NCBI GenBank assembly: GCA_964650515.1
Contig: CAZYUB010000008.1
Location: 16,126-80,125, forward strand
Reading direction: 5' to 3'
DNA: 64,000 nucleotides
DNA from: an uncultured Planctomycetia bacterium
GTDB taxonomy: Bacteria; Omnitrophota; Gorgyraeia; Pluralincolimonadales; Pluralincolimonadaceae
The translations under genes were made by a program, and so were the position numbers. Shown piece after piece: positions 10,399-54,912 of this stretch. The number at the start of each line of letters is the position of its first letter. The first letter of the stretch is position 1. Below the pieces are notes generated by a model. The model was not told the origin of the DNA. It did not search any database and worked only from the letters and a program-made list of their open reading frames with translations.

Positions 10399-11418
10399 TT
10401 ATTTATATACGTCCGCCTTCTTCAGGTATCCGCTGTCTATCAGTACCGCGTCAATATTATTCTTATCGACTACGACCGGCTTAAGCAATATCGACGGGAC
10501 GTCCATCTTGTTGTTATTAACGGCCCCCGTGGCCCCGGGATCCTGTTTGTTAATCATCTTCAGCGCGGCATCCATCGCTTTCGAGGCGAGTTCCCTCGTG
10601 TCCTTGAAGACGGTCATCGACTGTGTGCCTTTGACTATCCTCTGGGCGGCCGTCAGCTCGGCATCCTGCCCCGTGACGGGGACTTTTCCCGCGAGGCCGG
10701 CCTGCGCGAGGGCCTGTATGACCCCTCCGGCGGTATTATCGTTGGGTGCCAGCACCGCGTCTATCCTGTTGTTGTTCGCCGTAAGCGCGTTCTGCATGAG
10801 GTTCATCGCGACGGTCGGCTGCCAGTCCTGTATCCACTGGTCCATGACTATTTTAATGTCGCCCTTGGCCGCGAGCGGCTTTATGACCGACATAGCGCCC
10901 TGCTTGAAAAGCTTCGCGTTGTTGTCGGTCGGCGCGCCGCCGAGCACGACGTAATTCCCTTTCGGCACCGCTTTCGCGAGGTAATCCCCCTGCAACCTTC
11001 CGACCTCGACATTGTCAAACGAGATATAAAGGTCGACCTTCGTGTTCAGCACGAGCCTGTCATAGGATATCACTTTAATACCGGCGCCGTGCGCCTCATC
11101 GACAATAGCCGCAGCACTCGTCGCGTCATGCGGCGCAAGGATGAGCACGTCGATGCCCTGCGCGAGCAGGTTCTCGCATTGGGACATCTGTTTCGCGGCG
11201 TCATTGTCCGATATCTGCATCTTCAGGTCGAGGCCCTGCGCCTTTGCGACATCCCTCATCTTCTGCGCGTCCCTGACCCAGCGCTCGTCCCTTTGGGTCG
11301 GCAGCGACGCGCCTATACGCACCTTCTTCGCGGCCGGCGCGGCATCGCACGGCCCGAACGCGGTAACTGCGATAATTAACGATGCTGCAAACGAGGCATA
11401 TTTGAGCTTTACGTCCAT
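10399..11418 (-). CDS. xylF: periplasmic D-xylose-type sugar-binding protein
   Basis: Signal peptide; long collinear matches to E. coli XylF (YISFDNVEVG..., NNAKLF, KIVMDQW, LTANNNRIDAVLAPNDNTAGG, VPSILL). Confidence 0.85.
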   Translation of the reverse strand: MDVKLKYASFAASLIIAVTAFGPCDAAPAAKKVRIGASLPTQRDERWVRDAQKMRDVAKAQGLDLKMQISDNDAAKQMSQCENLLAQGIDVLILAPHDATSAAAIVDEAHGAGIKVISYDRLVLNTKVDLYISFDNVEVGRLQGDYLAKAVPKGNYVVLGGAPTDNNAKLFKQGAMSVIKPLAAKGDIKIVMDQWIQDWQPTVAMNLMQNALTANNNRIDAVLAPNDNTAGGVIQALAQAGLAGKVPVTGQDAELTAAQRIVKGTQSMTVFKDTRELASKAMDAALKMINKQDPGATGAVNNNKMDVPSILLKPVVVDKNNIDAVLIDSGYLKKADVYK

Positions 11419-23480: not shown

Positions 23481-24152
23481 TCAGGAGGATGCCCTTGTTT
23501 TAATTATGCTGACCATCCTGTTCCTCAGGCCCTCGAGCGTGAACGTATACGGGTCCAGCTGGGATATCTCCCTCGCTATGCGTTCGTCCCCTACCGAGGT
23601 CCTTATCCAGTTGGAAAAATCGTTCGTGTTCTTCTCGAGCCTCAGGCGCGCCTCGAATATGTGATAATAGATCGAATCTATGGTGACCTTGCCCAGCATA
23701 TCCGCGAATTCACCGAGGTCATGCGCGGTATATTTCGTCGATATCACGAAGCTTATCGACTTCATGAAATGGAACTCTTCGTTCTCCCCGGAAAACCTGA
23801 CTTTTGCCATCGGGTTCTTTGCCAGGTATGTTTCTATGGTCGCGGCTATCTTCTCCCTTAGGCTGCGGATAGTGCTGAACTGTACGACATCGATGCTCGC
23901 GAGCCGCTCCCCGAGTTCGTCCTCGCCGAGGACCTCGGTTACCCAATAAGCAAAATCATTCGGGGGTTCGGGCGAAAGGTACTGGTGCTGCTGCAGGAAC
24001 CTGTGCGTATGGTGATAGATGCAGGAGCCGTTGACCTCTTTGACGAGCTCGAGCAGCTGGCCGAGCGTCGATGCCCTCAGGCCGGTCAACTCGGTAAGAT
24101 GCATCCTCGTATAGAATACAAAGGGCTCTTTGGCTGTCCCTGTCTCCGCCAT
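23481..24152 (-). CDS. conserved hypothetical protein inside the trehalose operon
   Basis: 223-aa ORF packed between treT and otsB on the same strand; no known motif. Confidence 0.5.
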   Translation of the reverse strand: MAETGTAKEPFVFYTRMHLTELTGLRASTLGQLLELVKEVNGSCIYHHTHRFLQQHQYLSPEPPNDFAYWVTEVLGEDELGERLASIDVVQFSTIRSLREKIAATIETYLAKNPMAKVRFSGENEEFHFMKSISFVISTKYTAHDLGEFADMLGKVTIDSIYYHIFEARLRLEKNTNDFSNWIRTSVGDERIAREISQLDPYTFTLEGLRNRMVSIIKTRASS

Positions 24153-24156
24153 TCGG

Positions 24157-24903
24157 CTATTCCCTCTCCAGGCGCCCCGCCTGCCTTATGAACCTTATGA
24201 CTTCCTTATAGTCCTTCAGGGAATAAGCGGCCTTCGTCTTGCCCGGCCTCCCGACAAAAACCGTTATCCCCTTCTTGCCCAGCGCCGCAAAAGCGTCCTC
24301 GTCGGTAGTGTCATCGCCGATATACACCGGCAGGACCGGCTCCTTGACGCCAGCGGATGGCCGATGTTTTGCCAGCAACCACATTATGAGCTTGCCTTTA
24401 TCCCAGTCAACCGGAGGTTTTATCTCCAGCACCATCTTGCCTGTGCCTGCCTTGACCTTTCCTCCGGCAATATAACGCGCCGTCGCTTCCCTGAATGCCT
24501 TCCTGATGCGGGGAATATCCTTACGCCCCGCCAGCCTGTAATGAACGCTTAGAGTATAGCCCTTGTCTTCGAGGACCACGCCGTCTATCCCGGCCAGGCC
24601 CCTGCGCAGGTCCTGCGCTATCTTTTTTACGAGTTTACTGAAGCCTGCGGGGACAAAGCTCCTGGATTTGATGCCGGGGCCGCTGACCTCGAGCCCGTGG
24701 TTGCCGGAATACACTATACCTTTGACCCCGACCATCTTCTTTATGTCTTTAAGCGACCTGCCGCTTATGACAGCCAGCCTGCATCCGCCGTCCAGGGCCA
24801 GCCTGCGCAAGAGGCCCCTCGTACTTTTCGGGATGACCGCCTTTCCGGGGGTATCCGCGATCGGGACCAGGGTACCGTCATAATCGAGGAACAGGTATAC
24901 CAT
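24157..24903 (-). CDS. otsB: trehalose-6-phosphate phosphatase (HAD family)
   Basis: FLDYDGTL HAD motif I and IGDDTTDEDAF motif IV. Start set to the internal Met so that start and otsA stop overlap by 1 nt. Confidence 0.85.
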   Translation of the reverse strand: MVYLFLDYDGTLVPIADTPGKAVIPKSTRGLLRRLALDGGCRLAVISGRSLKDIKKMVGVKGIVYSGNHGLEVSGPGIKSRSFVPAGFSKLVKKIAQDLRRGLAGIDGVVLEDKGYTLSVHYRLAGRKDIPRIRKAFREATARYIAGGKVKAGTGKMVLEIKPPVDWDKGKLIMWLLAKHRPSAGVKEPVLPVYIGDDTTDEDAFAALGKKGITVFVGRPGKTKAAYSLKDYKEVIRFIRQAGRLERE

Positions 24904-27137
24904 TATTCTTTTTTCAATGAGGTGAGCTCCGTCACGATGCTGCCGGCCCACTTGAATACGTTGTTATCCCTCACGATATTGCGCATATTTTCCATGCGCT
25001 TCCTCTTGTCTTCTTCCGGCATCTCTATGGCCGTTTTTATCGCGTCGGAGAACTCCTCAATGGAGTAAGGGTTGATCTGCACCGCATCGGTCAGCTCCTT
25101 TGCCGCCCCGGTGAATCGGCTCAGTATCAGGACGCCGTCGAGGCTCTTGTTCGACATAACGTACTCTTTCGCGACGAGGTTCATCCCGTCGTGGAGCGAG
25201 CTTACGATGCAGATATCTGCGATAGCATAATACGGCTTTATCTCTTCCGGCGAAAAATGCTTTTTCAGGTATATGACCGGTTTCCAGTCGCCGTCGGAAT
25301 GCTTCCAGTTCACTTTCTCGACAGCTTCATCTATCTCCGCTATCAGATCGTGGTAACGTTTTATATGCGTCCTGCTCGGGGCCGCAAGCTGCACGAGGAC
25401 GAACTTCCCCTTATATTGAGGGTATTTCTCGAGGAACCTGTCGACCGCAGAGATCCTCTCGACGAGGCCCTTGGTATAATCGATCCTTTCGACGCCGACG
25501 GCCACTATCTTGCCTTTCAGCTCGAATTCCTCTTTAAGGCCGTTGATCGCGCTCATGTCCTGCTTGGCGCTGTCCTCCATGAAGCTGTCTACGCTTATCG
25601 GGAAAGCCCGGACGAACGTCTCTGACCCGGAGCGGACGATGCTGAATTTTTCCGTGTCAACTCGCGACTCAAGCAGCCTGTTGGCGGTATCAAGGAAATT
25701 ATTGCAATGGTACTGGACATGGAACCCTATCAGGTCGCACCCGAGCATCCCGTCGAGTATCTCTTTCTGGTAAGGGCATGTCGCGAATATCTCCGGGTTT
25801 GGCCACGGTATATGCCAGAAGAGCGCTATCGTCGCGTTCGGCTGCTTCTCTTTTATCATCTTCGGCAGAAGCGTAAAATGGTAATCCTGTATGAATATGA
25901 ACGCGTTTTTCGAAGGAAGCTCTTCGAGGATGGCGTCCGCGAATTTCTGGTTCACTTCTTTGTACATCCCCCAGTCCCAATCCCTGAAGACGGGCCGCGT
26001 ATGTGTTATGTGGCAAAGGGGCCATAAGCCCTCGTTCGAGAAACCGTAGTAATAACCCTGCTCCTCCTCCTTCGAGAGCCACACCCTTTTGAGTATATAA
26101 AGGTCCTCGCCCGGCGGCACCGGAAGCTTGTTCTTCGAATTCACGAACTTCCTGTCCTCGTTCCCGCTGCCATGGGCTATCCATGTGCCTCCGCACGCGC
26201 GCAATATCGGGTCTATCGCGGTTACTACGCCGCTCGCGGGGCGTATGCATTTCGTTTTGCCCGTCTCGTCTTCGCTGACATGCATATACGGTTCCCTGTT
26301 CGAGACGACATAGAGGGCATTCTCTCCGAGTTTCGCGAGTACAAGGTCCCGGAGCTTCTCCTGCGTCCAGAGCTCCTCATTCTTCAGCCGTGCCTGGGCC
26401 TCGCCCGATATGGTCTTGCGCGCTATCCTCAGGCTCAATGCTATCTGTTCCACTTCGCTGGCAAGTTTCCCGAAAGCGCCTTTCTCCTTGGTTATAGGAT
26501 GCTGCTCGTCGGTCTCTCCCTTCTGGAAACTGTGGAACCAATCGGTAAGCTGGAGTATCGGTAGTATGAAGATCTGCCTTTGCAGCATCAGCATTACGAG
26601 CGCGATGGACACAACGAGGGTTATCAAGGCCGTGCTAATATGCTTCCACAAGCCGGCCAGCGTCGTAAACACATACGACGTGTCATATATGACCTCGACG
26701 ACGCCCAGCTTGTTGTTCTCATCATCGGTTATCGGAAGGACATAACTGTATACCGAAAATTCCTTGAACTTTTCGAGCGCTCCCCTCGGTGCCCCTCCTT
26801 CCAGCGATTCCTTGACGTAGGGTTTGTCCTTATGCCCCCAGTCCGCGATACGGGAAGTTATGGAGAGTATGTTCCCGTTCCCGTCATAGATAACGCATCC
26901 CTGGAGCCTCTCCCTCTTCTGGAAACTCTCGGTGAGCCGGTTGGCCGACCTGAGGTCGTTGTTAGCAAGGATATACCTCGCGGAAAGCTCCGTGCTCTCC
27001 GCAACTGCCCTCGCTTTCCTTTGCAGGTCGTCCATGAGCTTGCCTTCCTCATAATTGACCTGCACGATGCCGAAGACGGTAAAGACCGCGGCAACGATTA
27101 TGAGTATGGGCAGTATAAAGAGAAGTACTCGCCTCAT
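24903..27137 (-). CDS. otsA: membrane sensor/HAMP domain fused to alpha,alpha-trehalose-phosphate synthase (GT20)
   Basis: C-terminal ~470 aa is a full OtsA (GLWPL, FFLHIPWP-like, LHDGMNLVAKEY). N-terminal ~270 aa has TM1, a ~140-aa extracytoplasmic domain, TM2 and a HAMP-like helix pair. Confidence 0.85.
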   Translation of the reverse strand: MRRVLLFILPILIIVAAVFTVFGIVQVNYEEGKLMDDLQRKARAVAESTELSARYILANNDLRSANRLTESFQKRERLQGCVIYDGNGNILSITSRIADWGHKDKPYVKESLEGGAPRGALEKFKEFSVYSYVLPITDDENNKLGVVEVIYDTSYVFTTLAGLWKHISTALITLVVSIALVMLMLQRQIFILPILQLTDWFHSFQKGETDEQHPITKEKGAFGKLASEVEQIALSLRIARKTISGEAQARLKNEELWTQEKLRDLVLAKLGENALYVVSNREPYMHVSEDETGKTKCIRPASGVVTAIDPILRACGGTWIAHGSGNEDRKFVNSKNKLPVPPGEDLYILKRVWLSKEEEQGYYYGFSNEGLWPLCHITHTRPVFRDWDWGMYKEVNQKFADAILEELPSKNAFIFIQDYHFTLLPKMIKEKQPNATIALFWHIPWPNPEIFATCPYQKEILDGMLGCDLIGFHVQYHCNNFLDTANRLLESRVDTEKFSIVRSGSETFVRAFPISVDSFMEDSAKQDMSAINGLKEEFELKGKIVAVGVERIDYTKGLVERISAVDRFLEKYPQYKGKFVLVQLAAPSRTHIKRYHDLIAEIDEAVEKVNWKHSDGDWKPVIYLKKHFSPEEIKPYYAIADICIVSSLHDGMNLVAKEYVMSNKSLDGVLILSRFTGAAKELTDAVQINPYSIEEFSDAIKTAIEMPEEDKRKRMENMRNIVRDNNVFKWAGSIVTELTSLKKE

Positions 27138-27138
27138 G

Positions 27139-28194
27139 CTATCGGGCCCCTTCCTGTTCGTAGTTTATCGCCCTTATCGGATACGGTATGACTATGCCCT
27201 CTTTATTATACCTCTCGTGCAGCCTCTTTACAAACTCATGTTTTATGAGGTACTGGTCGACAAACTCCTTTGCCCTCAGGATGACAGAGAAGTTTATGCT
27301 GAAATCCCCGAAGGTATGATAACGTATGAACGGCTCAAATCCGGGCAAGCCCCCGGACACTTGCTCCATGACCTCTTTCGCCACCTCGCACGTCACTTTC
27401 TCGACCTTCTTGAGATCGCTATTATAATGGACCCCGAGGTTTACAAGCACCGCCATCTCTTTTTCCGGCAGGTAATAATTCGTCGTGATCACCTGCGTCA
27501 ATTTGGCGTTCGGGACGAGGATGACATTGTTAGCCAGCATCCTTATCTTCGTGCTCCTCCAGGTTATATCGCTGACATAGCCCTCCTCCCCGGTCTCGAG
27601 TTTTATGTAATCGCCTATCTTTATCTGCCTGGCGGCAACGATATGGAAACCGGCGAACAGGTTCGAGAGCGAATCCTGCAACGCAAGCGCAACGGCAAGG
27701 CCTCCTATGCCCAAAGTGGCCAGGATAGGCGTGATCGCTATGCCGAGGTTATTCAATACAAGCAGCAGGCCGACGCCGAATATTATTATCCTGCTTATGT
27801 TCTGCGTGAGCGATGTGACCGGCAACGCGGATTCTATCGCGCTCGAACGCGAAACTATAAGCCTTGTGGCTATATGCGAAAGCGCGATCATGACCGATAT
27901 TGAACCCAGCACGAACAGCGCTTTTCCCCCGATATCAACCCACTTGGCAGGAAGCGAAGAGATCCCGAGCCCAAAATATATGCCGAGCATAAGGCACCAT
28001 ATAATGAACGGGCCTCTGGTTGCGGCAATGATTATGTCGTCTATATCGGTCTTGGTCTTGCTTGCCAAATGCAGGAAATGCCTGAATATAATGCCTCTCA
28101 ACACATAACCGAGCAAGACGGTCCCGAGGCAAACCAACGACGGAAGTATATAGGCCGCTGTACCGTTGAGATTCTGTAAAATAAGCTCCTTCAT
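27139..28194 (-). CDS. mscS: small-conductance mechanosensitive channel, MscS family
   Basis: Three N-terminal TM helices plus the conserved MscS pore and beta domains; RBS AGGAGGG. Confidence 0.85.
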   Translation of the reverse strand: MKELILQNLNGTAAYILPSLVCLGTVLLGYVLRGIIFRHFLHLASKTKTDIDDIIIAATRGPFIIWCLMLGIYFGLGISSLPAKWVDIGGKALFVLGSISVMIALSHIATRLIVSRSSAIESALPVTSLTQNISRIIIFGVGLLLVLNNLGIAITPILATLGIGGLAVALALQDSLSNLFAGFHIVAARQIKIGDYIKLETGEEGYVSDITWRSTKIRMLANNVILVPNAKLTQVITTNYYLPEKEMAVLVNLGVHYNSDLKKVEKVTCEVAKEVMEQVSGGLPGFEPFIRYHTFGDFSINFSVILRAKEFVDQYLIKHEFVKRLHERYNKEGIVIPYPIRAINYEQEGAR

Positions 28195-28235
28195 GCGATA
28201 TCCCTCCTGAAACTAAAAAAAGCGCCCTCCCGCTT

Positions 28236-28278
28236 ACACGAGATGGCGGCCCGACCATCGTAATGCCTCCCGGAGCAA
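28236..28278 (-). repeat. conserved leader module copy 1 (CTCCGGGAGG-N6-ATGGTCGGGCCGCCATCT) in the mscS 5' leader
   Basis: 19-nt core identical to the copy at 54801..54820; flanking similarity ~40 nt. Confidence 0.7.
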
Positions 28279-28304
28279 CCTATTTGCCCGGGACCCGATT
28301 ATCC

Positions 28305-28333
28305 ATTATATTGACATCGGATGGACATAGCAA
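28305..28333 (-). promoter_or_regulatory. sigma70-type promoter of mscS leader (TTGCTA-17-TATAAT)
   Basis: Hexamers and spacing. Confidence 0.5.
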
Positions 28334-47242: not shown

Positions 47243-48610
47243 CTATTTCCGCGCCGCCAAAGCTACGGCCTTCGCCACATTCTCATGCACAGCGGCATTC
47301 ATGAAGTTCGGGACGACCTCGTTCTTGCCTGCGAGCGAGGCGATCGTCTCGGCTGCGGAGAACTTCATCTTTGTCGTGATCTCCTTGGCGCGCGAATCAA
47401 GCGCGCCCCTTATGATGCCGGGAAAAGCGAGCGCGTTGTTTATGGTCCTTCCGTCGAGCGCTATAGATGCGCCGGCCTCTTCGGCCTCTTTCGGCCATAT
47501 CTCGGGAACTGGATTGGCAAGCGCGAATATTATCGGGCGCCTGTTCATCGTCTTGACCATCTGCTTGCTGACGAGTCCCGGGGCGGACAGTCCTATAAAC
47601 ACGTCCTTGCCCTTCAACACGTCCTTAAGCGCGCCTTTCTCCCTGCGCTTGTTCGTTATGCAGGCGATCTCCTTCTTATACGGGTTCATATCGCCTGCCC
47701 TGCCTTTATAAATGGCGCCTGCCCTGTCGCAGAACACTATGTGCCTGAAGCCGTATCCGAGCATGAGCTTTGCGGCAGCAATACCCGCCGCTCCTGCGCC
47801 GTTGATGACTATCTCGACCTTCTCCTTCTTCTTTCCGGTCATCTTGAGCGCTTTTATCAACGCGGCCAATATGACGGTCGCGGTGCCGTGCTGGTCGTCG
47901 TGGAAGACGGGCACCTTTACCTTCTTCTGGAGTTTCTGCTCGACCTCGAAACAAAGCGGAGCGCCGACATCCTCTATCATGATGACGCTGAACGTCTCCG
48001 CGAGGCACGCGAGCGAATCGACTATCTCATCGGCGTCTTCGCTCTTGAGCAGCAGGGGCACACAGCTTACCTTTGCCATCTTGTTCAATATTATGGATTT
48101 CCCTTCCATGACCGGCATCGCGGCTAGGACGCCTATATTACCGAGCCCGAGGACGGCGGAACCGTTCGTCGCTATGCAGACCGTGTTGCCGATCGACGTA
48201 TAGTCGCGCGCCGACGAGGGGTTGGCGACGATATGGTTACATACCTGCGCGACACCGGGCGTATAGATCATGCGCAGGTCGTTGAGCGTCTCCACTTTTA
48301 CGCGTGGCTTTACTTCGATCTTACCGCCTTTATGCAGGTTGAGCACCTCGTCCTGTATGTTCAGGACCTTATATCCCTTGAGGGTCTTTACCGCGGCTAT
48401 CGCCTTATGGAATTGCCTCTCATCGTCGAAGAACGCTATTATGTCCCTTACTATATAATTTGACGTAAGGTGTATCTTCGTGATGTCGCCCAGCGTGACG
48501 CCTTCGATGCCGAGCGCAAGCGCGAGGGTGCCGAGGGCTCCGGGGACATCCGGTATCCTGAAGCGTATCTTCTTGACGATCTTATGCGAATACTTCTCTA
48601 CTTCCGACAT
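47243..48610 (-). CDS. malic enzyme (NAD(P)-dependent malate dehydrogenase, decarboxylating) with N-terminal ACT domain
   Basis: ACT-like first 75 aa, then malic-enzyme motifs ([25 protein letters not shown]). Confidence 0.85.
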
Positions 48611-48975
48611 TTTGCAAGTATCTCCTTGACCTGTTTTACGAATTTATCGTTCGGGGTGGATTTTGATATATAGTCGAGCCCGCCTATCTTCCCGTCCACA
48701 GCCGCGACCTCTTCATCCGTGACAAGCGCGGTCAGGAACGCGACCGGGATGCCTTTCGTCTTCTCATCAAGCTTCAGGCTTTCGTGGACCCGTGTTCCTT
48801 CCACGTCCGGCATCATTATATCGAGCAGGACAAGGTCAGGCGCCTGTTCCGCGGCCATGGCCAATCCTTTCCTCGCGTCGTTCGAGGATATAACTTCAAA
48901 ACCTTCTTTCGACAGGACCTCCGTATAGAGCTTGAGCACCATCGCATCATCGTCTATCATCAGGATCTTTGCCAT
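48598..48975 (-). CDS. single-domain response regulator (CheY-like)
   Basis: DDD acidic pocket, phospho-Asp (LLDIMMPD), conserved T and K. Confidence 0.85.
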   Translation of the reverse strand: MAKILMIDDDAMVLKLYTEVLSKEGFEVISSNDARKGLAMAAEQAPDLVLLDIMMPDVEGTRVHESLKLDEKTKGIPVAFLTALVTDEEVAAVDGKIGGLDYISKSTPNDKFVKQVKEILAKCRK

Positions 48976-48990
48976 GTCCCCTCCTTAGGG

Positions 48991-50118
48991 TTAATTTATG
49001 TTTAACGGCAGGGTGAAACAAAAACGCGAACCCTTGCCCTTGCCTTCGCTTTCGAACCACATCCTGCCGCCGTGCAATTCGATGAACTTCTTGCTCAGCG
49101 GCATGCCGAGTCCGGTCCCGGCATACTTGCGCGAGTATTCACTGTCTATCTGCTCGAACTCCGAGAAGACCTTGCTCCTGTCCTTCTCGTCTATGCCGAT
49201 GCCGGTATCCGAGACGCATACGGATATCTCCTTATCTCCGGATTTGCGGGCGGTGATCCCTATCTTTCCCCCGTCGGGCGTGAACTTCATCGAGTTCGAC
49301 AGCAGGTTGAACACGACCTGCTTTACCTTCCTCTCGTCCGCCCGGATGACGCCGATGCCTTCTTCTATGCCGGTCGAGAGCGCAATGCCGTGTTTGGCCG
49401 CCTTTTCCTTAATGAATACCAGGCTTTTTTCGAGCAAGGCCTTAAGGTCGAAATCGCTTAGTTCAAGCGCCATCTTCCCTGATTCGACCTTCGAGAGGTC
49501 AAGTATATCGTTAATGAGCGAGAGCAGGTGTTTGCCGCTCTCATGTATGTAATCTATATATTCTTTTTGTTTTCCGTTCAGCGGGCCTACGCCCTCTTCC
49601 TTGATAAGTTCGGAGAAGCCGATTATCGCGTTAAGCGGCGTCCTCAATTCATGTGACATGTTAGCGAGGAACGAGCTCTTCGCCTTATTCGCGCTCTCCG
49701 CCGCCTCCTTCGCCTTCAGTATCTCCTCTTCCGCCTGCTTCAGCCGGGTTATATTGTTGCCTATGCAGAATATCTCCCTGACGCGCCCGTCCTCGTCGAG
49801 GATCGACTTATTCGTCCACGCTATCCATACGCGCGCCCCGCTGCGCTGCATGTTCTCGTTCTCGTTATTCACGTAGCTCGAAGGATGGAGCGCCATATCG
49901 TCTATCATCGCCTTGAGGTCGCGTCCGGACGTATCGGTGGGGGCTACTATCGTGCCGACGACGTTCTTTCCTATTATCTCTTCGCGCCTGTACCCGAAGA
50001 AATCCTCGGCGTACCTGTTGAAATACGTGACGTTGCCCTTCATATCCATGCGCAGGATGATGCTGTTCGCGTTCTCTACGAGGTCCTCATATTGTATTAC
50101 CGGGCCGCTCCCGCTCAT
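48991..50118 (-). CDS. cytoplasmic PAS-domain sensor histidine kinase
   Basis: PAS, then HisKA H-box (MSHELRTPLNAI), then HATPase N, G1 and G2 boxes. Confidence 0.9.
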   Translation of the reverse strand: MSGSGPVIQYEDLVENANSIILRMDMKGNVTYFNRYAEDFFGYRREEIIGKNVVGTIVAPTDTSGRDLKAMIDDMALHPSSYVNNENENMQRSGARVWIAWTNKSILDEDGRVREIFCIGNNITRLKQAEEEILKAKEAAESANKAKSSFLANMSHELRTPLNAIIGFSELIKEEGVGPLNGKQKEYIDYIHESGKHLLSLINDILDLSKVESGKMALELSDFDLKALLEKSLVFIKEKAAKHGIALSTGIEEGIGVIRADERKVKQVVFNLLSNSMKFTPDGGKIGITARKSGDKEISVCVSDTGIGIDEKDRSKVFSEFEQIDSEYSRKYAGTGLGMPLSKKFIELHGGRMWFESEGKGKGSRFCFTLPLNIN

Positions 50119-50492
50119 CCGTTTAAGTGGTCCTTTATTTTCTTTATAAGGCCTTTCGTGTCGATCGGCTTCGGTATGAAATCGTCGAACCCGGCCGCCC
50201 TTACGCGTTCCTCGTCCTCCCTCATGGCAGAGGCGGAGAGCGCGACAACCTTTACCTTACCCAGGCGGCTGTCTTCCCTTATTTTCCCGTACACTTCGAA
50301 CCCGTTCATCTTAGGCAGGTTTATATCAAGCAGTATAAGGTCCGGGACGTTTTCTTTCAACATCCCGATCGCGCCGCATCCGTCGACACAGCTTAACACA
50401 TTGAAACCGTTCATTTCAAGCAAGTCGACAGCCAGCCTCATGCTCAACGGCTCGTCCTCGACGACCATCACCGTTTTCTTAATGTCGGGCAT
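50115..50492 (-). CDS. single-domain response regulator (CheY-like)
   Basis: VEDEP...LLDINLPKMNG...KPI receiver motifs. Confidence 0.85.
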   Translation of the reverse strand: MPDIKKTVMVVEDEPLSMRLAVDLLEMNGFNVLSCVDGCGAIGMLKENVPDLILLDINLPKMNGFEVYGKIREDSRLGKVKVVALSASAMREDEERVRAAGFDDFIPKPIDTKGLIKKIKDHLNG

Positions 50493-50496
50493 CGGT

Positions 50497-51039
50497 TCAG
50501 TTTCCCCCTGCCAGGCCCTTCAGCAATCCCTCGATAGCGTCTATATCGGCATCCGCTATCCTGCCTGAACCGAAATAACGGACGGTCCCGCCCTTATCTA
50601 TGATGATGACGTTGCTGACGCCCTCTTTTGCCATATAATCCGCCGACATCTTTCCGTCCCAGTCGCCGTAGATCGTTATGCCTTCTTTCGCCGAGTTGTC
50701 CCGGAGGTTCTTCCTCCACGCCCCACCAAACAACACGCCCTTGCAATCGACGACCGCTATCCTGGTTATGCCGTCTTTTATGCCTTCGGGCTGCCTGTCG
50801 TAAAATTCGTTGAGAGCAGTCTTTAATTTGCGGTTCTGTTCCACGGCGTTCTTCGATTCATAGAACAATACGGCGGTCTTTCCTTTTATGTCATCCAATG
50901 TCAACGTCTTGTTATCTCCGGATATTACCTTGAAATCCGGGGCGGGATTCCCGGTAAGTGTGCCGCCTGCAATACAACAGGCCAGCGGCAATATTGCAAA
51001 GGCCATAAATAGGATTGCGGATATCAGGTTTCGTCTCAT
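50497..51039 (-). CDS. thioredoxin-fold lipoprotein, TlpA/AhpC-TSA-like but lacking a CxxC motif
   Basis: Lipobox LPLAC; NPAPDFKV TlpA-type entry motif; no redox cysteine pair. Confidence 0.5.
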   Translation of the reverse strand: MRRNLISAILFMAFAILPLACCIAGGTLTGNPAPDFKVISGDNKTLTLDDIKGKTAVLFYESKNAVEQNRKLKTALNEFYDRQPEGIKDGITRIAVVDCKGVLFGGAWRKNLRDNSAKEGITIYGDWDGKMSADYMAKEGVSNVIIIDKGGTVRYFGSGRIADADIDAIEGLLKGLAGGN

Positions 51040-51043
51040 GTAA

Positions 51044-52486
51044 TCAGGACAACCTTCCCAGGAGTTCCCGTAATGAAACCAGCGCTATAGCCGTCTGTTG
51101 GTCGGATAACGCGTACGGGATGATTAGCGCATCACCATGGAGTAAAGCACCGCATGAATATACCACGTTCGGGACATATCCGGAGCGGGTATCGTCCTCC
51201 CAATGGATAAGCGGCTCCTTCAACCTTCCGATCACTTTTGAAGGGTCATCGAGGTCGAGCAAAGCTGCGCCGATCGAATACTGGCACATCGGGCCGACTC
51301 CGTGGGTCAGCAGCAGCCACCCGCGGCCGGTCTCTATCGGTGAACCGCAATTGCCTATCTGCACGAACTCCCACGGGCATAAGGGCTCCATGATCGGGAC
51401 GGCTTCGTGCCAGAAATGTATATTGTCGGAATACATCAGGAAGAGCCTTTCATTATCGTTACGGGATATCATAGCATAAAGGCCGTTTATCCTGCGAGGG
51501 AACAGCGCCATGCCTTTGTTGACCGCCGCCTTGCCGTTCAGCGTGATCATTTTGAAGCGGATAAAATCTTCCGTCTCCATTATCTGCGGCAGTATTGCCC
51601 TTCCGTCATACGCCGTATAGGTGGCGTAGTACCTGCCTGTCCCGTCATCGTCCCTGAAGAACACGAAACGCGCGTCTTCCATCCCGTTCTGCTCGCTCGG
51701 TGAAAGCGGGAACAACACGCGTTCCGAAAGCGGCGACCCGCACATGAAGTCCGCCTCATAATTGCACCGGGCAAGCCAAAGTATCTTTTCGCAGGTTATC
51801 TTATCCGTATGCGCAAGCGGCTGGTGGCCGGCGATATATTCATTCGCCCTATCCTCGAGATGCCCCATCGTGAACTGGTCCTGGAGCGGCCCCGTAATGA
51901 ATCCTGAACAATCGTTTTCCAGCCCCATCTCAAAAAGTTTCCTGACAAAACATGCCTTATCGTACAGCGTATTTGGTCTCGGTTCCGCGATACAAGCGAG
52001 GCCTGAAGCTTCGTCTATTGCTACTGATCCGTCCCGGCCCGCGACTCCAGAGCGGAATGTCAGCGTGGATATATGCCCTTCACCCGTTGCGCGCAATGAA
52101 ATGATAAAACGCAGTGAACCCTCGGGGATCCCCGATTGGTCGGGGTGCGCTATAATAGACGGATTGAACAGGGCGGTTGATTCATACGAACGCTCTCCGA
52201 TGAAATATGCCCCGATAAGCAGCCTTTGCGTCCTTGATGGGGAGAAATCGGCAGGCATATGGGAACGGACGACCTCGAATTGGCGCTCGAGTATAGTTTC
52301 GAAATTATAGTGCCGCGCCGAAAAATCCTTTATTGTCTTCCCAAGCTCTTCATCCGCGGCAGGCGCGCCAAGCGCCATGACACGCGCGATTATTTTAGGC
52401 ACTCTCGACTGGTCGCCGGGAATATACGGCCTGATTATGACACGCTTGCTGTCGGGAACGATCGATACGCCTGCGTCCTTTATCAT
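51044..52486 (-). CDS. glycoside hydrolase family 130 (GH130)-like (DUF377) glycoside phosphorylase/hydrolase with ~200-aa N-terminal extension
   Basis: C-terminal GH130 signatures (YVPNVVYSCGALLHGDALIIPYALSDQQT, GSPIETGRGWLLLTHGVG). Confidence 0.7.
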   Translation of the reverse strand: MIKDAGVSIVPDSKRVIIRPYIPGDQSRVPKIIARVMALGAPAADEELGKTIKDFSARHYNFETILERQFEVVRSHMPADFSPSRTQRLLIGAYFIGERSYESTALFNPSIIAHPDQSGIPEGSLRFIISLRATGEGHISTLTFRSGVAGRDGSVAIDEASGLACIAEPRPNTLYDKACFVRKLFEMGLENDCSGFITGPLQDQFTMGHLEDRANEYIAGHQPLAHTDKITCEKILWLARCNYEADFMCGSPLSERVLFPLSPSEQNGMEDARFVFFRDDDGTGRYYATYTAYDGRAILPQIMETEDFIRFKMITLNGKAAVNKGMALFPRRINGLYAMISRNDNERLFLMYSDNIHFWHEAVPIMEPLCPWEFVQIGNCGSPIETGRGWLLLTHGVGPMCQYSIGAALLDLDDPSKVIGRLKEPLIHWEDDTRSGYVPNVVYSCGALLHGDALIIPYALSDQQTAIALVSLRELLGRLS

Positions 52487-54774
52487 TCTTCCAACGGCTC
52501 CTTGAGGCTCTCGAGGACATTTTCCATCTGCGTCATTTCCGTAAGGGATAAAAGGAACGAGAGGGTGGATTCTGCGCCCTGGTTGCGGTTCACCCTGTTT
52601 ATATGGAGGCCGTCACAGCAACCGCCCGTAACCGGATCATATAAGGAGATCCCGAGATCGTTGCTCCCGAGGAACCACTGGAAGACATTCAAGGCCTCCT
52701 CATACCACGCCTTATCCCTTGTCACGCGATAGGCGTCCAGGCATGCCGATACGGTGGAATAGGCCTCGACCGGCTGCTGGTCAAAAACGGGCTTTACCCC
52801 TCCCTTGCGGTATTCACCGTCGGTACCTACCGGCTGGAAATGGCCGCGCGGTGATGTCTGTACTTTTGTAAGCCATTTCAGGGACTCTATCCCTGACTTC
52901 AGCATCTCCGCGTTATCGAGATCGTGCCCGCTCAAAAGCAGCGCGTGGGGAAGCCTGGCGTCGCAATATGTAAGGGATTCCTCAAACCACCGCCATTCGT
53001 CGCTATTGTTTGCCTTATACAGGTCGTAAAGCCGTGACGCGAGCGTCTGCAGGCAGTTACGCGCAAGCCTGTCGCCGTGAAAACGCTGCAGGTATTCATG
53101 TATGCCGAGTAGCGTAAAAGCCCATGCCCTGGGAGATGTGAACGACAATGTGGGAGCAAGGGCCTTTTCAAAAATTTCTACCGACATCTGGGTGAACCCC
53201 TCGTTCTTGGACTGCCCTATGCAGGTACCGATAGCCCATATCGCCCTACCGTGGCAATCTTCGCTCGGCACCTCTTCCTTCCAGTTCCGCTGGAACGTCA
53301 GGAAATTCCTGAATCGCCCGGCGGACGGGTCCCACGCATACGTGACAAACCCGAGGTAGCGGCTCGCGAGGTCGTTTATCTTTACGGGATTTATCGAGCC
53401 GAGATTCTCGAGCAGGACGGCCAGGATCAGCGCGCGCGCGTTATCATCCGTGCAATAACCTTCGGAAAAATTCGGGACATTGAACGTGGCATGCTGGAAG
53501 ACGCCTATAGAATCGGTCATCCGTATCAGATGGTCGAGTTTTATATCCGGCAATACCGGATACTCGTGCTCGAGAGGGTGCATCGTTATCTTCTTCTGCG
53601 CGACAGAGGGGCGTTTTGTCTTTGCTTCCTCGAAGATCGACGCGTATTTCGACCCGGTTTTGCTCCATATCATATCGCGGCCGAGAAGATAAGCGTTCTT
53701 GCGCATCGCGTTGCGTTCATTATCATTGGCAATGAGCTTTGTTATCGCCTGGGCCGTCGCCTCCGGGTCGTTGAACGGCACGAGGATACCCCTGCCGTCG
53801 CTGAGCAGTTCGGCGGCATGCCAATACGGAGTGGAGATGACAGCGTTGCCTACCCCGAACGAATAAGCAAGCGTGCCGGAAGTTACCTGGGCCTCCTCAA
53901 GGTACGGAGTGATATAAATATCCGCGAGCACGAGCAATTCTTTAAGTTCTTCGGGAGAAACGAAATGGTTATGGAAGATCACGTTCCCGGATATCCCGAG
54001 TTCATCGCAAAGGATCTGCAGGGAAAGCCTGTAGGCCTCACCTTCATGCCTCAACAGGTTCGGATGCGTGGCGCCGACGATAATGTACACCACGTTCGGA
54101 TACTCCTTTATGACTTTCGGGAGCGCGCGCAGGACTACCTCTATCCCCTTTCGCGGCGAAAGCAACCCGAACGTCAGGATAGTCGTCTTGCCCTCGACCC
54201 CGTACTGGTCCTTATAAAAATTCGGGTCAATAAAAGACACGTCCGGTATACCGTGCGGGACCAGCCTTATCTTGGACTTTTGCGCCTTATTTACCGACTC
54301 AAGGATATCGACGGCCTTTTGCGTCATTACTATCACGCTGTCCGAGAGGCTGATCAGCTCATCCATGACACGTTTCTGGCGCGCGGACGGATTCTTCAAT
54401 ACAGTGTGCAGGGTCGTTATGACAGGCATATTCAACTGGCGCAATAAAGCCAGTATATAGCTGCCGTCGTTGCCTCCGAAGATGCCGAATTCATGCTGCA
54501 GGCAAACGACATCGACATTATTGAGGTTCAGGAAGTCCGCGGCCGCTTTATACGAGTCTATGTTCTGTTCTTTGATCTCGAAGCGAACGCGTTCAGGGTA
54601 ATCATAACCTTCCTCGATATCCGTGACCGGTATAGCGAATACCTGGACAGATGGGTTCAGGGCCGCGAACGCCTCGCAAATATCGGTGGTAAAAGTCGCT
54701 ATACCGCAGCGCCTCGGCAGGTAATTTCCTATAAACGCTATTTTTTTTATCTCGTTTGCCATTGCCCTTCCCAA
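52483..54774 (-). CDS. GT4 glycosyltransferase fused to a C-terminal ~370-aa alpha/alpha-toroid (six-hairpin glycosidase-like) domain
   Basis: N-terminal 390 aa: GT4 Rossmann pair with EX7E-like region. C-terminal domain rich in W/aromatic residues, GH63/GH15-like. Track start is TTG at 54774; ATG MANEIKK at 54762 is equally plausible. Confidence 0.7.
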   Translation of the reverse strand: MGRAMANEIKKIAFIGNYLPRRCGIATFTTDICEAFAALNPSVQVFAIPVTDIEEGYDYPERVRFEIKEQNIDSYKAAADFLNLNNVDVVCLQHEFGIFGGNDGSYILALLRQLNMPVITTLHTVLKNPSARQKRVMDELISLSDSVIVMTQKAVDILESVNKAQKSKIRLVPHGIPDVSFIDPNFYKDQYGVEGKTTILTFGLLSPRKGIEVVLRALPKVIKEYPNVVYIIVGATHPNLLRHEGEAYRLSLQILCDELGISGNVIFHNHFVSPEELKELLVLADIYITPYLEEAQVTSGTLAYSFGVGNAVISTPYWHAAELLSDGRGILVPFNDPEATAQAITKLIANDNERNAMRKNAYLLGRDMIWSKTGSKYASIFEEAKTKRPSVAQKKITMHPLEHEYPVLPDIKLDHLIRMTDSIGVFQHATFNVPNFSEGYCTDDNARALILAVLLENLGSINPVKINDLASRYLGFVTYAWDPSAGRFRNFLTFQRNWKEEVPSEDCHGRAIWAIGTCIGQSKNEGFTQMSVEIFEKALAPTLSFTSPRAWAFTLLGIHEYLQRFHGDRLARNCLQTLASRLYDLYKANNSDEWRWFEESLTYCDARLPHALLLSGHDLDNAEMLKSGIESLKWLTKVQTSPRGHFQPVGTDGEYRKGGVKPVFDQQPVEAYSTVSACLDAYRVTRDKAWYEEALNVFQWFLGSNDLGISLYDPVTGGCCDGLHINRVNRNQGAESTLSFLLSLTEMTQMENVLESLKEPLEE

Positions 54775-54806
54775 AACAAAAAACCACCTGATCTTATATC
54801 AGATGG
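54771..54806 (-). terminator. intrinsic terminator or attenuator hairpin (CCAUCUGAU-AUAAG-AUCAGGUGG followed by UUUUUUGUUUU), 12 nt before the GT4-fusion start
   Basis: 9-bp stem including one G.U pair, then a U-tract. Confidence 0.65.
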
Positions 54807-54838
54807 CGGCCCGACCATCATAAAGCTCCTCCGGAAGT
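54797..54838 (-). repeat. conserved leader module copy 2 (TTCCGGAGGAG-N6-ATGATGGTCGGGCCGCCATCT) in the GT4-fusion 5' leader
   Basis: See copy 1; here the core overlaps the 5' arm of a 9-bp terminator hairpin. Confidence 0.7.
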
Positions 54839-54883
54839 ATTCGGGCTATCTCCGGACCCTTTATCATTTTCGCATACTTAAAG

Positions 54884-54912
54884 AGTATAACTGACTTTAA
54901 CCTATTATTCAA
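54884..54912 (-). promoter_or_regulatory. sigma70-type promoter of GT4-fusion leader (TTGAAT-17-TATACT)
   Basis: Hexamers and spacing. Confidence 0.5.

Follow-up and report, generated by a model that had tools for sequence, protein, structure and literature searches.

Known monovalent-cation riboswitches

The nhaA-I motif was described by Weinberg et al. (2017) and validated by White et al. (2022, Sci Rep 12:19145, PMC9646797): nhaA-I RNAs bind Li+ and activate expression, and less often the motif is associated with otsA (16), glycosyl transferase (5) and mscS (3) (PMC9646797). A terminator-coupled variant from Desulfobulbus propionicus showed Na+-dependent read-through in single-round transcription, termination being prevented; mutation of its junction GG to AA abolished switching, and a C-to-U (C54U) mutant responded to Li+, Na+ and NH4+ (PMC9646797). 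Na+-I riboswitches operate by a P2-versus-terminator logic (White et al., 2022, Nat Chem Biol, PMC9337991). Within the collection of papers searched, no work on Li+-I or Na+-II riboswitches later than PMC9646797 and PMC9337991 was found. White et al. left open whether the otsA-associated nhaA-I RNAs sense Li+ or Na+, and the two copies described here bear on the answer.

The leader of the GT4 fusion-GH130 operon

We analysed a 64-kb stretch of DNA, hereafter the window; all coordinates of promoters, aptamers, terminators and genes are on the minus strand. Positions 54912..54763 (-) very probably constitute the promoter and 5' leader of a GT4 fusion-GH130 operon, with a monovalent-cation riboswitch of the nhaA-I class (copy 2). 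The second such element (copy 1) precedes an mscS operon. The features of the two leaders are the following:

54884..54912 (-), sigma-70-like promoter, copy 2: -35 TTGAAT (54912..54907), 17-nt spacer, -10 TATACT (54889..54884)
54801..54859 (-), nhaA-I (Li+-I / Na+-II class) aptamer, copy 2, assigned by RF03057 match and covariation in relatives
54802..54819 (-), P2 hairpin GAUGG-UCGGGCCG-CCAUC, -6.1 kcal/mol on its own
54773..54807 (-), intrinsic terminator, the putative expression platform of copy 2: stem 54807..54783 with 10 pairs, 5-nt loop, U6GU4 to 54773
54747..54821 (-), 24-codon frame MMVGPPSDIRSGGFLFWEGQWQTR and stop, judged to be incidental to the RNA sequence and no leader peptide
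28305..28333 (-), promoter, copy 1: TTGCTA-17-TATAAT
28241..28296 (-), nhaA-I aptamer, copy 1: RF03057, 49.9 bits, model positions 1-55 of 55
28215..28248 (-), terminator, copy 1: stem 28248..28223, U7 28221..28215, -14.8 kcal/mol

A preliminary description had placed a regulated leader just 5' of the GT4-fusion gene, and this is borne out, with a hairpin and an intrinsic terminator that are mutually exclusive. Most of its elements lie where it put them: the promoter TTGAAT-17-TATACT (54912..54884, -), the TCCGGA...TCCGGA hairpin (54856..54851 paired with 54835..54830, -), GGAGGA (54832..54827, -), ATGATGGTCGGGCCGCCATCT (54821..54801, -), the hairpin CCAUCUGAU/AUCAGGUGG, which has 9 pairs including one U-G wobble, or 10 once the closing G-U is counted (54807..54783, -), and the U6GU4 tract behind it (54783..54773, -). 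The second copy of the leader that it claimed was also recovered, at about 28240..28296, and the window holds two occurrences of the 19-mer GATGGTCGGGCCGCCATCT, for which chance would give only 0.03 matches, even allowing for as many as 3 mismatches. Two details had to be corrected, since the last U (54773) lies 10 nt, and not 12 nt, before the ATG at 54762, and the terminator, called strong, is only moderate (-11.0 kcal/mol vs -6.1 for P2). The transcript of copy 2 is predicted to start ~18 nt 5' of the aptamer, and a purine-rich GGGAAGGG stands at 54772..54765 (-), ahead of the GT4 fusion gene.

The aptamer of copy 2 matches RF03057 with 45.2 bits (model positions 1-55 of 55, E = 5e-8), and both copies exceed the gathering score of 37 bits across the full-length model. 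Copy 2 is made of a 5' GGGU, P1 (54856..54830), an AGG junction (54830..54828), a linker and P2 (54819..54802). GGAGGA consists of the P1 3' base and the conserved AGG junction. The conserved core (GGGU, P1, AGG junction and P2 closing on UCGGGCCG) is complete in both copies, and each copy follows a promoter and precedes the leading gene of its operon, on the same strand. In the 64-kb window there was no other Rfam match at gathering score, the Na+-I (DUF1646 motif) model included, and a search with a loose core pattern found no third aptamer copy, the aptamer context being confined to the two known sites. Matches to ncr952 (16 bits vs a gathering score of 100) and RMST_1 near both copies were weak and dismissed as chance. 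The leader element is a new example of a known cation sensor, nhaA-I, and not a new ribosome-stalling mechanism. This removes a false lead, namely a new Pro-Pro stalling attenuator, as the class is an existing Rfam family with experimental tests behind it.

Covariation and distribution among relatives

We collected 52 related aptamers, scored in part with filters of our own choice (P1 with at least 4 pairs, P2 with at least 5 pairs), so that the paired-cell counts among the relatives lean toward structure. P1 pairing predicts P2 pairing among the 122 raw pattern matches (Fisher p = 8e-10). About half of these raw matches, found in genome contigs, were set aside as chance hits in GC-rich, mostly actinomycete DNA without P1/P2 pairing. 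RNAalifold applied to 49 aptamers gave both-sided pair-preserving changes at 8 of the 12 pairs, with P2 arms including GAUGG/CCAUC, AAUGG/CCAUU, GUUAG/CUAAC, GACAG/CUGUC, GAUAG/CUAUC and GGUGG/CCACC. While the stem arms co-vary, the eight loop-region bases UCGGGCCG are invariant in the 49 aligned relatives, except at the known U/C position.

A compact terminator starting inside P2 is present in 24 of the 52 related aptamers, and such terminator-coupled relatives also occur in Elusimicrobia, Nitrospirae, Planctomycetales and Spirochaetaceae MAGs. Matches to RF03057 at gathering score (43.8-56.2 bits) precede GT4 operons in 11 relatives (L123 and ten metagenome loci). Among Omnitrophota relatives, one riboswitch heads GT4-GH130-MscS-OtsA in L123, SPFH-SPFH-MscS-GT4-GH130 in L140 and cupin-GT4-GH130 in L136. 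A close, 97%-identical relative, L121, shares the promoter hexamers TTGAAT/TATACT but has no riboswitch, the ~100-nt aptamer-terminator cassette being absent. The cassette thus behaves like a regulatory module that can be detached.

The open frame within the leader

The preliminary description had read this part of the leader as an 8-codon mini-ORF, MMVGPPSD, in which a ribosome stalled at Pro-Pro-Ser would mask the terminator 5' arm and thereby permit read-through. Such leader-peptide attenuation would draw on the overlap between the Pro-Pro-Ser codons and the terminator 5' arm, on the AUG or GUG kept at the start position by most relatives of the subtype, and on a GGAGG lying 5-7 nt 5' of the AUG in both copies. 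Because this GGAGG resembles a Shine-Dalgarno sequence, some ribosome loading may take place in vivo in either copy. Nevertheless, the frame has 24 codons (54821..54747), running through the terminator and the U-tract to end 15 nt inside the GT4 gene, in another frame, and CCA UCU GAU are its codons 6-8 instead of 5-8; the equivalent frame of copy 1 is open for 107 codons (27935..28258), and those of relatives range from 7 to >1000, so that no defined peptide exists. The supposed peptide is the P2 hairpin of the aptamer read as codons (M-V-G-P-P-S), and the segment said to sense by stalling on Met-Met-Val-Gly-Pro-Pro-Ser falls within 54859..54801, the full-length nhaA-I match above gathering score.

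Substitutions among relatives tell against translation as well. GUA, ACA, GCA, AUA, UUA or AGG replaces the start codon in 11 of the 52 relatives, among them 7 of the 24 terminator-coupled ones, and the matching change in the opposite arm converts Pro-Pro to Pro-Leu. Three fourfold-degenerate third positions (in the 'Val, Gly, Pro' codons) are invariant in 49 sequences from many phyla, a pattern that speaks for constraint on the RNA and not on a peptide. The AUG is absent at the P2-stem position in the validated RNAs of P. monteilii, R. eutropha, A. caulinodans and D. propionicus, the D. propionicus switch is active in a purified transcription system without ribosomes, and both the AUG and the GGAGG are base-paired within the aptamer fold. 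Since neither a conserved short ORF, nor its start, regulatory codons and stop ahead of the terminator are kept, we consider leader-peptide attenuation very improbable.

In two other loci, the aptamer AUG opens frames of 769 codons (L030) and >1050 codons (L023), which raised the idea that it could be the true start of a long gene. This was rejected, because the frames cross terminators and the real genes begin downstream.

Terminator and switching mechanism

The preliminary description had held that the GAUGG...CCAUC fold and the terminator cannot coexist, and in this it was right: P2 and the terminator are mutually exclusive because the P2 3' arm (54806..54802) doubles as the terminator 5' arm. 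In copy 1, the terminator 5' arm takes in the final bases of the loop together with the P2 3' arm. Both copies have an intrinsic terminator that excludes P2, as expected of a Na+-II platform. The terminator is present in the minimum-energy fold of each leader.

We propose that, during transcription of the leader, the aptamer would fold into GGGU, P1, the AGG junction and P2 (GAUGG-UCGGGCCG-CCAUC). At low cation concentration, P2 (-6 kcal/mol) would give up its 3' arm to the terminator hairpin (-11 kcal/mol), and the hairpin with its U6GU4 tract would stop transcription 10 nt before the start codon. With the cation bound, P2 would be held, the terminator blocked, and RNA polymerase could enter the operon, making this an ON switch with ligand; copy 1 (28296..28215) would act likewise on mscS-otsA-otsB-DUF5752. 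Family membership, alternative folds, covariation and gene contexts are shown here, and cation binding and, for D. propionicus, anti-termination are taken from published experiments on relatives. Taken as a whole, a cation riboswitch with a terminator platform, ON with ligand, is very probably the best explanation of the leader.

The scan found no other terminator from the stop of the upstream ABC-F gene (54922) to the promoter or the GT4 start, so it is plausible that the leader hairpin also ends ABC-F transcripts. This same scan could be taken to mean that hairpin and U-tract are merely a constitutive ABC-F terminator whose resemblance to a riboswitch is incidental. However, a promoter lies between ABC-F and the hairpin, copy 1 lies behind another gene altogether, and the aptamer-terminator unit precedes the GT4 operons of relatives despite unrelated upstream genes (a CLC channel gene in L123), standing directly before GT4 in some and before cupin or MscS/SPFH genes in others. 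With an Rfam E-value of 5e-8 and comparative data that already contradict it, we give this explanation next to no credence, and the cation riboswitch remains the preferred reading.

The regulated genes

The genes placed behind the two copies are the following:

52483..54762 (-), GT4 fusion gene, 759 aa, first regulated gene of copy 2
51044..52486 (-), GH130 gene, second in the operon, with a 4-nt overlap with the GT4 fusion gene
50497..51039 (-), AhpC-like gene, after the GH130 gene
23481..28194 (-), copy 1 operon, mscS-otsA-otsB-DUF5752
27139..28194 (-), mscS
24903..27137 (-), otsA, with a long N-terminal extension
24157..24951 (-), otsB
23481..24152 (-), DUF5752 gene

The N-terminal half of the GT4 fusion is PimA/MshA-like and its C-terminal domain is uncharacterised, residues 606-755 matching only the uncharacterised YPO2471 structure 7tem. 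A look-up of the GT4 fusion and MscS proteins by exact sequence returned no entry. The nearest homologues of the GT4 fusion, 85-97% identical, belong to MAGs named Candidatus Omnitrophota, and the window was assigned to this phylum through the 97%-identical ones; the family extends across many phyla at 54-70% identity. The GH130 protein resembles beta-1,2-mannoside phosphorylases and synthases. The gene order of the operon is kept in L121, L123, L134 and L136.

The two copies head the mscS-otsA-otsB-DUF5752 and GT4 fusion-GH130 operons, which suggests a regulon for salt or osmotic stress. Through these copies, a mechanosensitive channel, trehalose synthesis and a putative mannoside pathway would respond to a common ionic signal, which would tie MscS, trehalose synthesis and the uncharacterised GT4 fusion-GH130 pair together in uncultivated Omnitrophota and offers a testable functional hint for the GT4 fusion glycosyltransferase family.

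Na+ or Li+ as the signal

The window copies combine a Li+-type loop U, a Na+-type P1 base and a terminator. At the published discriminator, the first P2 loop position, both have U (GG-U-CGGGCCG) and not the C of D. propionicus (AG-C-CGGGCCG), yet their P1 base is of the D. propionicus type; the U is also found in 23 of the 24 terminator-coupled relatives sampled here. This U is shared with the Li+-validated RNAs of P. monteilii, R. eutropha and A. caulinodans, as would be expected of a strictly Li+-selective switch (Li+-I proper), in which case both operons would respond to lithium toxicity and not to sodium or osmotic stress; White et al. point to an effect of Li+ on trehalose metabolism in some eukaryotes as a possible reason for the link with otsA (PMC9646797). 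Against such selectivity, the copies share with the Na+-sensing RNA of D. propionicus a C-G base of P1 (GGGUCC...GGAGG) in place of G-C (GGGUGC...GCAGG), the terminator platform was tied to Na+ variants (PMC9646797), and the D. propionicus C54U mutant was still Na+-responsive. Moreover, NhaA, the hallmark Li+ exporter, is encoded by none of the 44 first downstream genes of the GGGUCC...GGAGG subtype; osmoprotectant, MscS and Na+-coupled functions are found instead (GT20/OtsA in 11 of 44, and also Na+/H+ exchangers, DUF1646, MscS, Rnf/Nqr and Na+/Ca2+ exchangers). We consider a strictly Li+-selective switch unlikely.

The gene context favours Na+ or osmotic stress, and the signal is most likely Na+ rising in salt or osmotic stress, although we infer both the identity of the acting cation and the osmoadaptation role of the genes. 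RNAs that are U-type, C-G-based and terminator-coupled occur in Omnitrophota, Elusimicrobia, Nitrospirae, Planctomycetes and other phyla. It is possible, if doubtful, that they form a distinct and widespread subclass reporting intracellular Na+ or ionic strength, not Li+, and that the regulon marks the GT4 fusion and GH130 as a new salt-induced mannoside pathway. If so, the pair would make or recycle a compatible solute of the mannoside type, in addition to trehalose synthesis and MscS.

Comparison with known systems

The element shares with trp/his-type leader-peptide attenuators the competition of a 5'-leader terminator with an alternative hairpin, but the conserved short ORF, regulatory codons and pre-terminator stop that characterise those attenuators are not conserved in it. 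Na+-I riboswitches (DUF1646 motif) are closer in logic, since there the cation reinforces P2 and blocks a competing terminator, and they control osmoprotectant and Na+ transport genes (PMC9337991); they constitute, however, a separate Rfam family in which the lower P1 and the P2 loop consensus differ.

Within nhaA-I, the window copies have a P2 loop region UCGGGCCG identical to that of Li+-I (RF03057), U included, and that motif is also associated, though more rarely, with otsA, mscS and glycosyl transferase. In typical Li+-I members, by contrast, P1 has a G-C base (GGGUGC...GCAGGUU), nhaA lies downstream and the switch presumably works through the ribosome-binding site, whereas the window copies have a C-G P1 base and a terminator platform, in a subtype with nhaA downstream in 0 of 44 cases. 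The Na+-II RNA of D. propionicus resembles them in GGGU, the C-G base of P1 (UCC...GGA), AGG and the P2 loop CGGGCCG, in a terminator 5' arm overlapping the P2 3' half to give a transcriptional ON switch, and in having downstream genes other than nhaA. It differs in the first base of the P2 loop, which is C54 there and U in the window and is the sole specificity determinant published so far, and in its host: terminator-coupled variants were found only in Deltaproteobacteria (PMC9646797), and the Omnitrophota copies and their relatives extend them beyond that group. The downstream genes, 'hypothetical' in PMC9646797, are here identifiable as MscS/OtsA/OtsB and GT4 fusion/GH130.

Identification of two nhaA-I RNAs

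Across the entire window, an Rfam search yielded two matches that reach the gathering score (37), both to the nhaA-I RNA (RF03057) and both over the full model; there is no third copy in the 64 kb.

54859..54801, minus strand: nhaA-I RNA, copy 2 (45.2 bits)
28296..28241, minus strand: nhaA-I RNA, copy 1 (49.9 bits)

Members of this family were shown to be Li+-binding riboswitches that switch gene expression on (White et al., 2022, PMC9646797). Both copies in the window are new representatives of this riboswitch class, whose mode of action is known, in a host phylum from which it was previously unreported. Read along the minus strand, the leader of copy 2 comprises:

54922, minus strand: end of the ABC-F gene
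54912..54884, minus strand: promoter-like site, TTGAAT-17-TATACT
54856..54851 and 54835..54830, minus strand: self-complementary TCCGGA arms of a hairpin, preceded by GGGU
54821..54801, minus strand: AUGAUGGUCGGGCCGCCAUCU, preceded by GGAGGA and a short linker
54807..54783, minus strand: hairpin, followed by U6GU4 (U-tract end at 54773)
between the U-tract and the ATG at 54762, minus strand: 10 nt including the purine-rich GGGAAGGG, before the gene of a 759-aa protein

The promoter, TCCGGA hairpin, GGAGGA, AUGAUGGUCGGGCCGCCAUCU and final hairpin with U6GU4 noted in the preliminary description are thus all present, and alignment to the RF03057 model explains each item listed there: GGGU and the TCCGGA hairpin are the 5' end of the aptamer and its hairpin P1, GGAGGA combines the 3' base of P1 with the conserved AGG junction, and AUGGUCGGGCCGCCAUC corresponds to P2, a hairpin that hardly varies within the family. 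Exactly two instances of the 19-mer GATGGTCGGGCCGCCATCT lie in the window, where 0.03 matches would be expected by chance with up to three mismatches permitted.

A structured RNA and not a leader peptide

AUGAUGGUCGGGCCGCCAUCU had been described as a mini-ORF encoding MMVGPPSD, with a ribosome stalling on Pro-Pro-Ser at the terminator. The term mini-ORF is inaccurate, since the frame runs for 24 codons (54821..54747), crossing the terminator and stopping within the GT4 gene in another frame, and the corresponding frame of copy 1 is open for 107 codons. We searched GTDB genomes, one for each species, for the pattern GGGTCC N8-30 GGAGG N5-13 RGYCGGGCCGCY, which yielded at least 120 loci; among the 122 matches listed, 52 passed an aptamer filter (P1 of at least four pairs, P2 of at least five) and the remainder are mostly chance matches in GC-rich DNA. 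P1 pairing predicts pairing at three P2 positions that the pattern leaves unfixed (50/12 vs 15/45, Fisher p = 8e-10, 122 matches listed). The P2 arms co-vary among the matches listed (GAUGG/CCAUC, AAUGG/CCAUU, GGUGG/CCACC, GUUAG/CUAAC, GACAG/CUGUC, GAUAG/CUAUC and CAUAG/CUAUG), with compensating changes in eight of 12 pairs (RNAalifold, 49 of the listed sequences).

The peptide is not maintained. Among the matches listed, the supposed start triplet is GUA, ACA, GCA, AUA, UUA or AGG in 11/52 aptamers, in which Pro-Pro also becomes Pro-Leu; a start codon is absent from seven of the 24 aptamers with a compact terminator, and the frame can be as short as 7 or exceed 1000 codons. Read as Val, Gly and Pro codons, the loop would have fourfold-degenerate third positions, yet the bases at these positions are invariant across phyla in the listed sequences, which argues for constraint on the RNA and not on a peptide. 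In addition, the P2 stem of validated nhaA-I RNAs lacks an AUG at the corresponding site (construct sequences, PMC9646797), and the Desulfobulbus propionicus switch functions without ribosomes (PMC9646797). On P2 covariation together with these five results (missing start codons, variable frame length, invariant degenerate positions, validated RNAs lacking AUG and ribosome-free switching), we reject the leader-peptide reading, and the stalling mechanism is left unsupported.

Expression platform

The mutual exclusion of the two hairpins proposed earlier does hold, since in copy 2 the 3' arm of P2 (54806..54802) doubles as the start of the terminator 5' arm. The copy 1 terminator stem (28248..28223, followed by U7) starts in the last loop bases and spans the P2 3' arm. 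P2 alone has a folding energy of -6.1 kcal/mol, the terminators -11.0 (copy 2) and -14.8 kcal/mol (copy 1), and the minimum-energy fold of both leaders contains P1 plus terminator. An ON switch would be expected to have this arrangement, with termination as the default state and ligand-stabilised P2 preventing terminator formation.

Regulated genes

Copy 1, minus strand: mscS, otsA (24903..27137, N-terminal extension of ~270 aa), otsB and a DUF5752 gene (23481..24152)
Copy 2, minus strand: 759-aa GT4 fusion (52483..54762) and a GH130 protein, with an AhpC-like gene next

The N-terminal half of the GT4 fusion resembles PimA and MshA, and the only match to its C-terminal part is 7tem, a structure that is itself uncharacterised; the GH130 protein is similar to beta-1,2-mannobiose and oligomannan phosphorylases and to a mannoside synthase. 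The extension of OtsA (trehalose-6-phosphate synthase) opens with a hydrophobic, probably membrane-spanning segment; the OtsA homologue of the related locus L123 has a weak dCache_3 match, and at L028, L030, L046, L105, L113 and L119 (Elusimicrobia, Omnitrophota and others) the riboswitch is followed by an ORF of comparable size (733-751 aa) whose N-terminus is likewise hydrophobic. These sequence features suggest a second, protein-level sensory input. The position of the DUF5752 protein (E = 1e-69) as the final gene of its operon suggests that it takes part in trehalose or osmotic-stress physiology. Downstream of GH130 (47243..51039, minus strand), the AhpC-like gene, a response regulator, a PAS histidine kinase, a second response regulator and a malic enzyme are separated by only a few bases, in an order identical in the related locus L121, and may share a transcript with the genes under riboswitch control.

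Distribution in relatives

The closest GT4 fusion homologues belong to Candidatus Omnitrophota MAGs (up to 97% identity), which places the window in this phylum. In relatives both gene sets can sit under one riboswitch:

L123: riboswitch, GT4, GH130, MscS, OtsA
L140: riboswitch, SPFH, SPFH, MscS, GT4, GH130
L164: riboswitch, MscS, SPFH, SPFH, GT4, GH130
L135, L136, L149, L158: riboswitch, mannose-6-phosphate-isomerase-like cupin, GT4 (GH130 next in L136 and L149)

A riboswitch precedes the GT4 operon in 12 of 24 evaluable metagenome loci (GT4 fusion at least 78% identical), and all 11 checked against Rfam reach the gathering score; none was found within 5 kb of 54-70% identical homologues from other phyla. 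Compared with window positions 54763..54912, L121:5900-6003 (GT4 fusion 97% identical) retains the TTGAAT/TATACT hexamers without the ~100-nt aptamer-terminator cassette; the cassette is thus acquired or lost as one piece. This clean indel provides a natural comparison between a leader that has the riboswitch and one that lacks it.

Over their full length, the GT4 fusion and its homologues (P0043-P0120) are unusually conserved (54-70% identity), homologues at 67-76% identity occur in Bacteroidota, Chlorobiaceae, Kiritimatiellae and Thermoplasmata archaea, and a GH130 gene usually follows; this pattern suggests a horizontally spread two-gene module. On another Omnitrophota contig (L152) there are two nhaA-I riboswitches, one preceding the GT4 fusion by ~400 nt and the other 4 kb downstream (4541-4598 and 11189-11243), the latter before an ORF whose product begins with MDWQ, as in the riboswitch-led SPFH genes of L140 and L141; several copies per genome neighbourhood are thus seen there and in the window. 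Unrelated to nhaA-I, a ZMP/ZTP riboswitch (L164:8797-8877, 50.1 bits) lies directly after GH130, before a PFL-like glycyl-radical enzyme.

Ligand and comparison with known family members

Most nhaA-I RNAs precede nhaA, and the published gene associations include otsA (16), glycosyl transferase (5) and mscS (3), with Li+ versus Na+ sensing by otsA-associated RNAs left open by the authors (PMC9646797). Among the matches listed, the first downstream gene of the subtype is GT20/OtsA in 11/44 and NhaA in 0/44, the others including Na+/H+ exchangers, DUF1646, MscS, Rnf/Nqr, a Na+/Ca2+ exchanger and CitMHS. Rare variants with an intrinsic terminator, named Na+-II, were reported only in Deltaproteobacteria, and their D. 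propionicus representative showed strong Na+-dependent read-through in single-round transcription with purified polymerase (PMC9646797). Its C54, the first P2 loop base, distinguishes AG-C-CGGGCCG from GG-U-CGGGCCG of Li+-selective RNAs (construct sequences, PMC9646797), and C-to-U at this position widened the response to include Li+, Na+ and NH4+ (PMC9646797).

The combination of features in both copies does not fit the published Li+-I/Na+-II split cleanly. Strict Li+ sensing would agree with the U at the discriminator position, but the Na+ response persists in the U-bearing D. propionicus mutant (PMC9646797), and it is made unlikely by a C-G base of P1 shared with D. propionicus, by the use of a terminator as platform, by the lack of nhaA and by genes characteristic of salt and osmotic stress. 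Sensing of Na+, or of monovalent cations broadly with Na+ as the physiological signal, is the probable function.

In a Desulfobulbaceae MAG (JALNXE010000187.1; L058:501-790), a tandem array of three near-identical nhaA-I aptamer-plus-terminator units at ~118-nt spacing precedes a 428-aa membrane-protein ORF; this array appears to be the 'triple riboswitch arrangement' named, uncharacterised, in PMC9646797. The competition between P2 and terminator in copies 1 and 2 follows the same logic as in the sister class Na+-I (PMC9337991).
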